DNA of 64,000 bases from a bacterium (lineage in GTDB: Bacteria > Bacteroidota > Bacteroidia > Bacteroidales > Bacteroidaceae). The stretch is taken from assembly GCA_963594895.1 (NCBI GenBank), contig CAVBFJ010000010.1, forward strand, positions 1,129-65,128, written 5' to 3'. The translations under genes and the position numbers were made by a program. This document shows positions 55,749-57,185 of the stretch, one piece after another. Numbering within the stretch: the first letter of the stretch is position 1; each line of letters opens with the position of its first letter. The notes beneath the pieces are model-generated. The model had not been told where the DNA came from and did not search any database. It worked only from the letters and a program-made list of their open reading frames with translations.

Positions 55749-57185
55749 TCACTGGTCGCCGCCGGCGTGGCGGGTCTCTATCTGTCGGTTGATGTCGTCG
55801 ATGACCTCATCGGTGAGCTCATACTTGGAGATGATCCACATGGCCAGCACGAGCAGCAGGGCGGGTATGACGCAGACCAGCCAGCGGATGCCCTCCTGCG
55901 CGAGGGGCGTCTGCTGCTCCAGGCCGTTCATGAAGTAAGCGCCGGCCGCGTTGCCCACCGACATCATGGCGAAGGCGGTGATGAAGAACAGGGCCACGAT
56001 GCGGAGGGGCCTGTTGTGGAAGAACTCCGTCCAGAGGTCGCTGACCTTGACGTTCTTCGTGTCTTTCTCGTCCATCACCACGCGCTCCTTGGTCTGCGTG
56101 AAGCAGAAGACGAGCAGGGCCAGGCCCACGAGAGCGTAGATGAGCATCGCCACAAACCAGGCGTTGCTGTCCGACGGCAGTGAGCTGCCCTGCTGCTGGG
56201 CCGCGGCGCGGTAGCCCGTGAAGGCCAGCACCGCTCCCGGCACCACGCCGCCCAAGGCCATGCCGGCCTTGTAGAAGATGCCCGTCAGGGCGTTGACGAT
56301 GCCCGCGATGCGCTTGCCGCTGGTGTACTCGGCATAGGAGATGACCTCGGGCACCAGCGCCCACATGTAGCCCGTGGCGACGATGACGCCGGTCGACTTG
56401 ATGAACTGTGCGACGTAGACGAGCGTGATGTGGTCCTCCACCGGCCCCATGCGGCTGATGACGTAGAGCAGGGCCATGCCGATGATGGCCACGGTGAGGA
56501 AGATGTAGAACATGTTCTTCTTGCCCACGCGCCGCTTGATGGCCGGCACCAGGGGCATGAAGATGAACGAGGGCAGGGAGCCCAGGCCCATGAAGAGCGC
56601 CATCTCGGTGGGCAGCTCACGCGCCGCCGCGAGCAGCGCCACGAGGATGGGCACGCCGGCCGACACGCACAGGCCGCCCACGTTGGCCATGAACATGCGC
56701 ACGGAGGTGAGGATGGTGATCTCATCGGTGTCGCGCGTCAGCGAGGAGTTGAGGGCGCCATAGGGCACGTTGACCAGCGTGTAGAGCATCGACAGGCCGA
56801 CGTAGGTCACGTAGGCGTAGATGAGCTTCACCGTGTCGGTCTGTCCCTCCATGCCGTTCCAGAAGCAGAGGATGGCCAGCACCGTCAGCGGCAGGCCCGC
56901 CAGGATGAGGTAGGATCGATACTTGCCCCAGCGGGGGTTGTGCTTGTCGACGTAGGTGCCCACGAGGGGATCCCACAAGACGTCGACGAGGCGCACCACG
57001 AGAAACATCGTGGCCGCCACGCCCGGGCGCAGGCCGTAGATGTCGGTGTAGAAGAACAGCAGGTACATGCAGATGGTCTGGTAGATGAGGTTTTGGGCCA
57101 GGTCGCCAGAGCCGAAGCCGATGCGCTGCAGCCAGTTGAGCTTATAGAAGCCGCGTGAGGCGGCGTTTGTTCCAGGGTTTTCCAT
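55749..57185 (-). CDS. GPH-family (MFS_2) xyloside/oligoxylan:cation symporter, apparently with permuted TM order
   Basis: GFGSGDLAQNL, DVLWDPLVG, GKYRSY and NVPYGAL motifs; 12 hydrophobic segments; located in the xylan cluster. Confidence 0.9.
   Translation of the reverse strand: MENPGTNAASRGFYKLNWLQRIGFGSGDLAQNLIYQTICMYLLFFYTDIYGLRPGVAATMFLVVRLVDVLWDPLVGTYVDKHNPRWGKYRSYLILAGLPLTVLAILCFWNGMEGQTDTVKLIYAYVTYVGLSMLYTLVNVPYGALNSSLTRDTDEITILTSVRMFMANVGGLCVSAGVPILVALLAAARELPTEMALFMGLGSLPSFIFMPLVPAIKRRVGKKNMFYIFLTVAIIGMALLYVISRMGPVEDHITLVYVAQFIKSTGVIVATGYMWALVPEVISYAEYTSGKRIAGIVNALTGIFYKAGMALGGVVPGAVLAFTGYRAAAQQQGSSLPSDSNAWFVAMLIYALVGLALLVFCFTQTKERVVMDEKDTKNVKVSDLWTEFFHNRPLRIVALFFITAFAMMSVGNAAGAYFMNGLEQQTPLAQEGIRWLVCVIPALLLVLAMWIISKYELTDEVIDDINRQIETRHAGGDQ

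Follow-up and report, generated by a model that had tools for sequence, protein, structure and literature searches.

Transporters of the MFS are described as two contiguous six-helix bundles with one cytosolic loop between them (passages of PMC8154325), and the evolutionary rearrangement of MFS helix blocks is disputed (passages of PMC4889909). The window, a stretch of 64,000 nucleotides from a Bacteroidaceae contig (CAVBFJ010000010.1), carries a transporter gene in which the helix blocks stand in another order. This raises the question of whether such an order is real, how it arose, and whether the protein still works as its relatives do. The gene and its parts are the following.

55749..57185, minus strand: permuted GPH/MFS_2 transporter gene, 478 aa, helix order 1-5, 8-11, 6-7, 12
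56628..57143, minus strand: block A, TM1-5, residues 15-186 (block HMM); D68 and D72 stand at the MelB Asp55 and Asp59 positions
56604..56627, minus strand: new periplasmic junction TM5 to TM8, residues 187-194; first copy of the TM5-6 loop motif (E/D)LP
56211..56603, minus strand: block C, TM8-11, residues 195-325; K306 stands at the MelB Lys377 position (weak alignment)
56169..56210, minus strand: new periplasmic junction TM11 to TM6, residues 326-339; low model confidence; second LP, 7 residues ahead of the TM6 Trp
55923..56168, minus strand: block B (moved), TM6, cytoplasmic central loop and TM7, residues 340-421 (profile and block HMMs)
55911..55922, minus strand: new periplasmic junction TM7 to TM12, residues 422-425 (sequence)
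55776..55910, minus strand: block D, TM12, residues 426-470, followed by a C-terminal helix (block HMM; model)

Order of the helix blocks

The sequence-only reading had claimed an intact open reading frame of normal length with the helix order 1-5, 8-11, 6-7, 12, and both points were borne out. First, TIGR00792 (gph) matched four stretches along the gene, in the profile order 1-164, 257-393, 168-249 and 387-437. The whole-protein score of 320.8 bits (curated cut-off 231.35) is summed over these out-of-order stretches, as is the PF13347 score of 319 (cut-off 27). In addition, block HMMs trained on 90 seed proteins chosen as normal-order relatives each matched the window protein once, at residues 15-186 (A), 195-325 (C), 340-421 (B) and 426-470 (D); the TM numbering is based on alignment to MelB and the family profile. 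The motifs lay where they had been placed, with MALFMGLGS beginning at 56603 and AWF at 56162. Finally, a profile-profile alignment with the close normal-order sisters gave 378 columns at 73% identity, broken by two complementary gaps of about 90 residues. The canonical chain order, TM1-6 and then TM7-12, is therefore not that of the window protein by profile, block HMMs or profile alignment. The family HMM and the profile alignment gave no collinear alignment to normal GPH members, which would have spoken against the reading. The swap was correctly read as non-circular: both ends are in place, and two inner blocks trade places. These results confirm a GPH/MFS_2 transporter with TM6-7 encoded after TM8-11, and the window protein is a variant descended from the GPH/MFS family, not a canonical member of it.

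Among solved structures, MelB of Salmonella (GPH, TC 2.A.2; PDB 7L16, 9OLI) was the best match in sequence and in structure. The two proteins have in common the Asp55, Asp59 and Lys377 positions, twelve helices, the central cytoplasmic loop between TM6 and TM7, and the C-terminal helix. Unlike in MelB, the bundles of the window protein are not contiguous halves of the chain. The normal-order sisters (P0122-type and LPKD type) differ from the window protein in the same way, with the order 1-12 and a model that aligns to MelB over 444 residues.

Occurrence of the permuted gene

Could the order come from misassembly, or from a dead and scrambled gene? The window belongs to a 95-contig assembly, and the rare 14-helix forms described below show that chimeras of these genes occur. 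However, complete chromosomes of the Segatella copri isolates HDD04, HDD05 and G8 were among the loci with block order ACBD, collinear with the window gene. One contig from an independent DNA run spans 55763-57163, across all junctions, with 94 differing letters and no gap; no sequencing run sharing half of the window's words was found. The sequences fetched held 301 distinct full-length permuted proteins. Against the dead-gene reading, dN/dS relative to the four nearest loci was 0.054-0.105 for the whole gene and 0.029-0.073 for block B (at larger distances, silent sites are saturated), and purifying selection is shown on all four blocks. For the 12-helix form, an artefact or a dead gene is thus already refuted, and we leave it practically no probability. 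The swap is natural, as had been proposed.

The protein search gave 5337 matches of either helix order among 7998 candidates, with identities to the window protein of 76-96% among the best 120. In genomes, 453 loci were found. The same order is present in other genomes: 79 of the best 80 loci, a set biased to close relatives, had the full ACBD order; the remaining one was ended by a contig edge. Cluster sizes (e.g., 2615) were excluded from the counts, since three of four checked cluster members were unrelated proteins. The block matches in 718 fetched sequences (repeats included) comprised 326 ACBD, 318 ABCD and 4 ABCBD, and the others were partial or odd, including one ACCBD and one AABCD protein. 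The distinct full-length proteins were 282 main permuted, 19 divergent permuted, 203 close normal-order and 105 distant normal-order.

Matches were found in 44 of the 151 genomes of the family sample (14 with the main permuted form, 16 with the normal order and 15 with the divergent permuted form, one of these genomes carrying the last two). In the genus sample, 108 of 201 genomes matched, with 22 weaker matches left out of the table. Forty carried the main permuted form only (29 of these calls were checked by HMM and the others come from the match pattern), 47 the normal order only, 15 the divergent form only, five the normal and divergent forms, and one was unclassified. In neither sample did a genome combine the main permuted form with a close normal-order gene. 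The permuted form was found in two of 121 genomes in an order-wide sample with one genome per family, and in one of 401 in a phylum-wide sample, namely the window's own genome. Some permuted proteins are also labelled Salinivirgaceae or Kiritimatiellae, and some permuted loci Paludibacteraceae or Marinilabiliaceae. The permuted form is a lineage mainly of Bacteroidales and was absent from the other groups sampled with this query. The swap marks a widespread lineage with close normal-order sisters, a point absent from the sequence-only reading.

Several labels deserve separate mention. The permuted protein labelled Kiritimatiellae (P0405) lies on a 19.5 kb contig and may reflect a transfer to another phylum or a binning error. 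Thirteen loci (L002, L010, L018, L023, L034-L036, L038, L039, L042, L044, L046 and L050) lie in bins labelled Bacillota or Spirochaetota; most have Prevotella-like neighbours, and the contigs are likely misbinned. Three long-branch permuted proteins (P0404, P0412 and P0423) come from contigs of 1446-1587 bases that scarcely exceed the gene in length. Two of them have an unusual residue make-up and might be gut-eukaryote transcripts of an acquired gene.

The xylan locus, the cation site and the normal-order sisters

The transporter lies among genes for xylan use.

57244..58446, minus strand: SGNH/GDSL esterase gene (PF13472), upstream, same strand as the transporter
54580..55752, minus strand: GH10 xylanase gene (PF00331), directly downstream of the transporter
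53607..54560, minus strand: GH43 glycosidase gene (PF04616), likely a beta-xylosidase, the activity being taken from S. copri GH43_1 in passages of PMC11784079
58464..62528, plus strand: hybrid two-component regulator (HTCS), divergently transcribed (ORF list and domain search)

The window gene thus has the position of a xylan-locus transporter, and no second gph match was found in the genome that carries it (92% complete). GH10 or GH43 was near the permuted gene in 76 of the 80 best loci. By type, GH10 was found in 70, GH43 in 63, the esterase in 46 and the HTCS in 42, with some loci ending at contig edges. Two features of the surroundings were noted in passing. The listed GH10 frame begins at a GTG overlapping the transporter stop, and its true start is likely an ATG about 60 bases further on, which opens a signal-peptide-like stretch. 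Directly downstream of the xylan genes, on the opposite strand, 46338-53067 encodes a 1299-aa RHS/YD-repeat protein and then a 958-aa DUF7619 protein with a weak type IX secretion tail.

Comparable loci (HTCS, esterase, MFS, GH10, GH43) have been described for XynD of Prevotella bryantii B14, NQ544_12690 of Segatella copri DSM 18205, and the clones F5, I7 and I8. The passages cited below make no mention of helix order for these MFS proteins, and the comparison is by description, not by sequence. In such passages, the xylan-locus MFS is described as an inner-membrane importer (PMC8002723, PMC11784079), and the P. bryantii gene of such a cluster appears in reviews as the inner-membrane transporter XynD (PMC8002723). 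S. copri DSM 18205 induces a comparable locus, whose transporter may be of either order, on xylan (passages of PMC11784079). The Prevotella clones I7 and I8 (MFS, GH10, GH43) let E. coli grow on xylo-oligosaccharides (passages of PMC8990778), and the MFS of a Bacteroides clone provides uptake up to xylotetraose (passages of PMC13543919). The passages of PMC3774763 give no species for I7 and I8. RNA-run contigs matching the gene come from relatives and carry no expression level.

We compared the cation site with that of MelB, in which the roles of Asp55, Asp59 and Lys377 have been described (passages of PMC8329300). D68 corresponds to the position changed in MelB D55C, D72 lies four residues on, and K306 was reached via a weak alignment. 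These residues are conserved in the main permuted group (D68 in 281/282, D72 in 282/282 and K306 in 281/282). The GPH cation site, an acidic pair in TM2 and a Lys in TM11, is thus present, the Lys by the weak alignment. MelB Asp19, Asn58, Asp124 and Trp128 are replaced by Asn, Trp, Asn and Gly in the window protein, and likewise in the close normal-order sisters. Judged from its sequence and neighbours, the gene likely encodes an ordinary cation-coupled importer of xylose or short xylo-oligosaccharides. Its role is thus probably a common one, unlike its architecture.

Other members of the family vary at this site. The divergent permuted group (L086:1495-2898 and L145-L160) is about 40% identical to the window protein and has Ser at the MelB Asp59 position in 17 of 19 proteins. 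Given that MelB D59C acts as a uniporter (passages of PMC8329300), this group may have lost ion coupling. A divergent permuted gene can have a further GPH gene, of normal order, as its neighbour (L157), and the pair of divergent permuted gene and normal-order relative occurred in five genomes of the genus sample. In one normal-order group (L137:652-2049, L204/L205 of genome G698, and P0288-P0403), the Asp55 position is Asn, and the arginine three residues before it is also replaced by Asn. This was the case in 119 of the 203 close normal-order proteins, and it is a second cation-site change in the same locus.

The close normal-order sisters (P0122-type; LPKD type, e.g., L129 and L137) have a mean identity of 71-74% per block to the window protein and fill the same slot before GH10 and GH43. 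Genome G698 carries a normal-order gene, and its GH67, esterase, GH10 and GH43 share 93-99% identity with their counterparts in G713, G688 and G759. The latter three carry the permuted gene, with a transporter only about 68% identical to that of G698 in block A. The DNA identity between the loci of the two orders dips within the transporter gene. A normal-order gene between near-identical flanks shows an in-place replacement of one order by the other and suggests that the two orders do the same job. From these comparisons, the two orders look interchangeable as xylo-oligosaccharide importers. Loci of this type contain one order or the other, so I7 and I8, the clones tested, may carry either, and the interchange seen with G698 speaks against a quick transfer of the published clone results to the permuted form.

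Predicted fold, gating and origin

All three new junctions had been placed in the periplasm, with the topology preserved. This placement stood: the breaks are all periplasmic, and with an even helix count in both swapped blocks no helix is turned over in the membrane. On the cytoplasmic side, K+R number 4 in loop 2-3, 5 in loop 8-9 and 7 in loop 6-7, but only 1 in loop 4-5 and 2 in loop 10-11; the three new junctions have 1, 1 and 0. The charge pattern is supportive of periplasmic junctions but not decisive.

The AlphaFold2 model, built with 91 permuted sequences, has twelve long helices (pLDDT 83.4, pTM 0.82), and its confidence is low only at the N-terminus and at residues 329-334 (pLDDT below 50) within the TM11 to TM6 linker. 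The control model of the normal-order protein P0124, also with 91 sequences, reached 85.4 and 0.84. Compared with MelB 7L16 by Foldseek, the permuted model gave a TM-score of 0.45 and an rmsd of 14.6 Å, and the control 0.85 and 3.0 Å. VIA-align superposed 360 residues of the permuted model on MelB (2.7 Å, Z 28.1) and 444 of the control (2.5 Å, Z 43.2); it keeps the sequence order, so the placement of TM6-7 is outside its reach. The shortfall of 84 residues is about the size of block B (82). Since the 360 superposed residues amount to approximately TM1-5, TM8-11 and TM12, blocks A, C and D (ten helices) are predicted to superpose on MelB end to end. The helices of block B have a pLDDT near 87-94, and from this confidence we infer that TM6 and TM7 would occupy their MFS positions. 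All twelve helices are predicted to pack as in MelB. The model helices, the blocks and the compatible loop charges agree with an MFS fold of twelve helices with both ends inside. The MelB structure that best fits the permuted model is in the outward-facing state, which is the state of 7L16 (passages of PMC8329300).

The extra periplasmic cross-links between the bundles that the sequence-only reading had pointed to are present in the chain order. The chain crosses between bundles three times, at the new TM5 to TM8 and TM11 to TM6 links and at the old TM6 to TM7 loop. In 282 proteins, the three junctions have median lengths of 8, 13 and 4 residues (5-95% ranges 7-10, 12-14 and 4-4), and the longest is the TM11 to TM6 link with a median of 13 residues between blocks. 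The protein would work by rocker-switch alternating access as in MelB. The rewiring would be tolerated because all breaks lie in periplasmic loops and both swapped blocks are even-numbered, because TM5 of one bundle lies next to TM8 of the other even in the normal order, and because the TM11 to TM6 link may be long enough for the outward-open state. The contact between TM5 and TM8 moves little between states (passages of PMC4889909). The length of the TM11 to TM6 link and the fit to outward-facing MelB, in which the outer ends are farthest apart, argue for normal rocker-switch transport by the permuted protein, which we consider likely.

The tightly kept junction lengths could also be read as adaptive, with the periplasmic cross-links altering gating, turnover, substrate length or ion coupling, and the two orders being different transporters. 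TM7 and TM1 form the outer gate (passages of PMC8154325), and TM7 is now tied to TM12 instead of TM8; moreover, the form is old enough to include the 40%-identical group with its Ser at the Asp59 position. However, the normal-order loops are equally tight (8 and 7 residues), the model fits outward-facing MelB, the tested binding-site residues are identical in close permuted and normal-order proteins, and one locus is filled by both orders. We regard adaptive rewiring as unlikely. The suggestion that the cross-links constrain gating is not supported so far, given the outward-facing fit, the low-confidence TM11 to TM6 linker, the little-moving TM5-TM8 contact and the interchange at the locus. 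Ordinary transport is the reading we retain.

The linkers also bear on the origin of the order. After dereplication, 42 of 58 permuted proteins have LP at the junction after TM5 as well as at the one before TM6, and the spacing from LP to the TM6 Trp is 7 in 48 of the 58, the same as in 13/13 normal-order LP sisters. Normal-order sisters have LP once, in the TM5-6 loop (13/39), and rarely or never in the TM7-8 (1/39) and TM11-12 (0/39) loops. The LP scar is short, with two or three residues, and compared with the normal-order sisters it is shifted by 1-3 residues relative to TM5. In the divergent permuted group, the first LP copy was found in 0/12. The doubled motif points to a duplication followed by two deletions, and because the motif is short it is a hint only. 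We propose that an ancestor resembling the normal-order LPKD sisters underwent an internal duplication from the TM5-6 loop through TM11, and that the second TM8-11 and the first TM6-7 were then lost. Each intermediate would retain the full ordered twelve-helix set, or the final one. Later, the gene would have spread, with permuted and normal-order genes replacing each other at this locus. An old intermediate with the duplication was not found.

A tree was built on the blocks restored to normal order, with 34 of 64 rows; 22 distant and eight long-branch rows (seven permuted, one normal-order) were dropped, and a tree including the long-branch rows was unstable at the root. Sixteen permuted and six LPKD proteins formed a starred clade (96/97) nested among other normal-order proteins, and the order label needs two changes. 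Such a tree might mean that the order arose repeatedly or that the LPKD group is a reversion by recombination; the L126-L128 group has junction sequences of its own, and mosaic genes exist. Against repeated origins, a single clade of permuted rows was not rejected (p-AU 0.42), and the three breakpoints and similar linker lengths are common to all permuted groups. Against reversion, the LPKD group retains ordinary TM7-8 and TM11-12 loops. A cut-and-paste of block B without duplication is a further route, for which the doubled LP motif would be unexpected. Together, these routes seem rather improbable, slightly more so than adaptive rewiring. We consider an ordinary importer with MelB-like packing, a duplication origin and later exchange to be, as a whole, the likely explanation.

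Four 14-helix proteins (P0031, P0055, P0128 and P0191) have the order 1-11 and then 6-7, 12, with two copies of TM6-7. They were rejected as ancestors of the duplication, since sliding 50-residue windows show recent mosaics. Their front matches living normal-order proteins in up to 50/50 residues. The back of P0031 and P0055 matches living permuted proteins in 50/50, with the switch within TM8-11, and that of P0128 and P0191 matches permuted proteins less closely. Each is a single-member cluster on a contig shorter than 6.2 kb. Exactly this 14-helix layout results when a normal-order and a permuted gene cross over within block C, in cells or in the assembler, and the 14-helix forms are either natural recombinants or assembly chimeras.

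Rearranged MFS helix blocks are also the subject of the 'mix-and-match' helix-triplet hypothesis of Madej and Kaback, disputed by Vastermark and Saier (both in passages of PMC4889909). That hypothesis concerns three-helix repeats between distant families, whereas the units here, of two and four helices, do not respect triplet boundaries, and the swap is evident from direct comparison of proteins that share about 70% identity. The 14-helix MFS proteins (PepT HA/HB type) and split LacY show that MFS tolerates extra helices or an inter-bundle break, but, in the passages of PMC8154325, they keep the order of the twelve core helices, unlike the window protein. A 2026 review of bacterial glycoside transporters gives one common 12-helix topology, and its main text makes no mention of permutation. 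Our literature search returned no report of a permuted GPH or MFS transporter, nor any transport assay of such a protein; TCDB and most subscription journals lay outside it, and an earlier mention is possible. We think there is a reasonably good chance that this is the first natural MFS lineage with a non-circular helix permutation, comprising thousands of gut Bacteroidales genes, with bundles interleaved and cross-linked twice outside, standing beside normal-order alleles and recombining with them into 14-helix hybrids.

A likely xylan-sugar importer of many gut Prevotella-type bacteria, with shuffled helices but a predicted normal transporter fold, suggests that a large transporter family can tolerate rewiring of its chain. 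If this is true, neither folding nor alternating access depends on the six-plus-six layout of the chain. The lineage offers a direct and recent case of MFS helix-block rearrangement with a control about 70% identical. The permuted and normal pair allows tests of whether the N-bundle must be made and folded ahead of the C-bundle, of the degree of periplasmic cross-linking that a rocker switch tolerates, and of the way in which a polytopic membrane protein passes via duplicated intermediates. The protein concerned is likely a fibre-sugar importer of S. copri and rumen Prevotella. It also serves as a warning that HMM annotation and collinear homology models conceal such rewiring.

Seven distant normal-order GPH proteins (L095, L096, L104, P0477, P0479, P0517 and P0525) are 590-760 aa long. 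They carry large TM5-TM6 inserts of up to about 300 residues; the loop that is broken in the permuted form thus tolerates large insertions.
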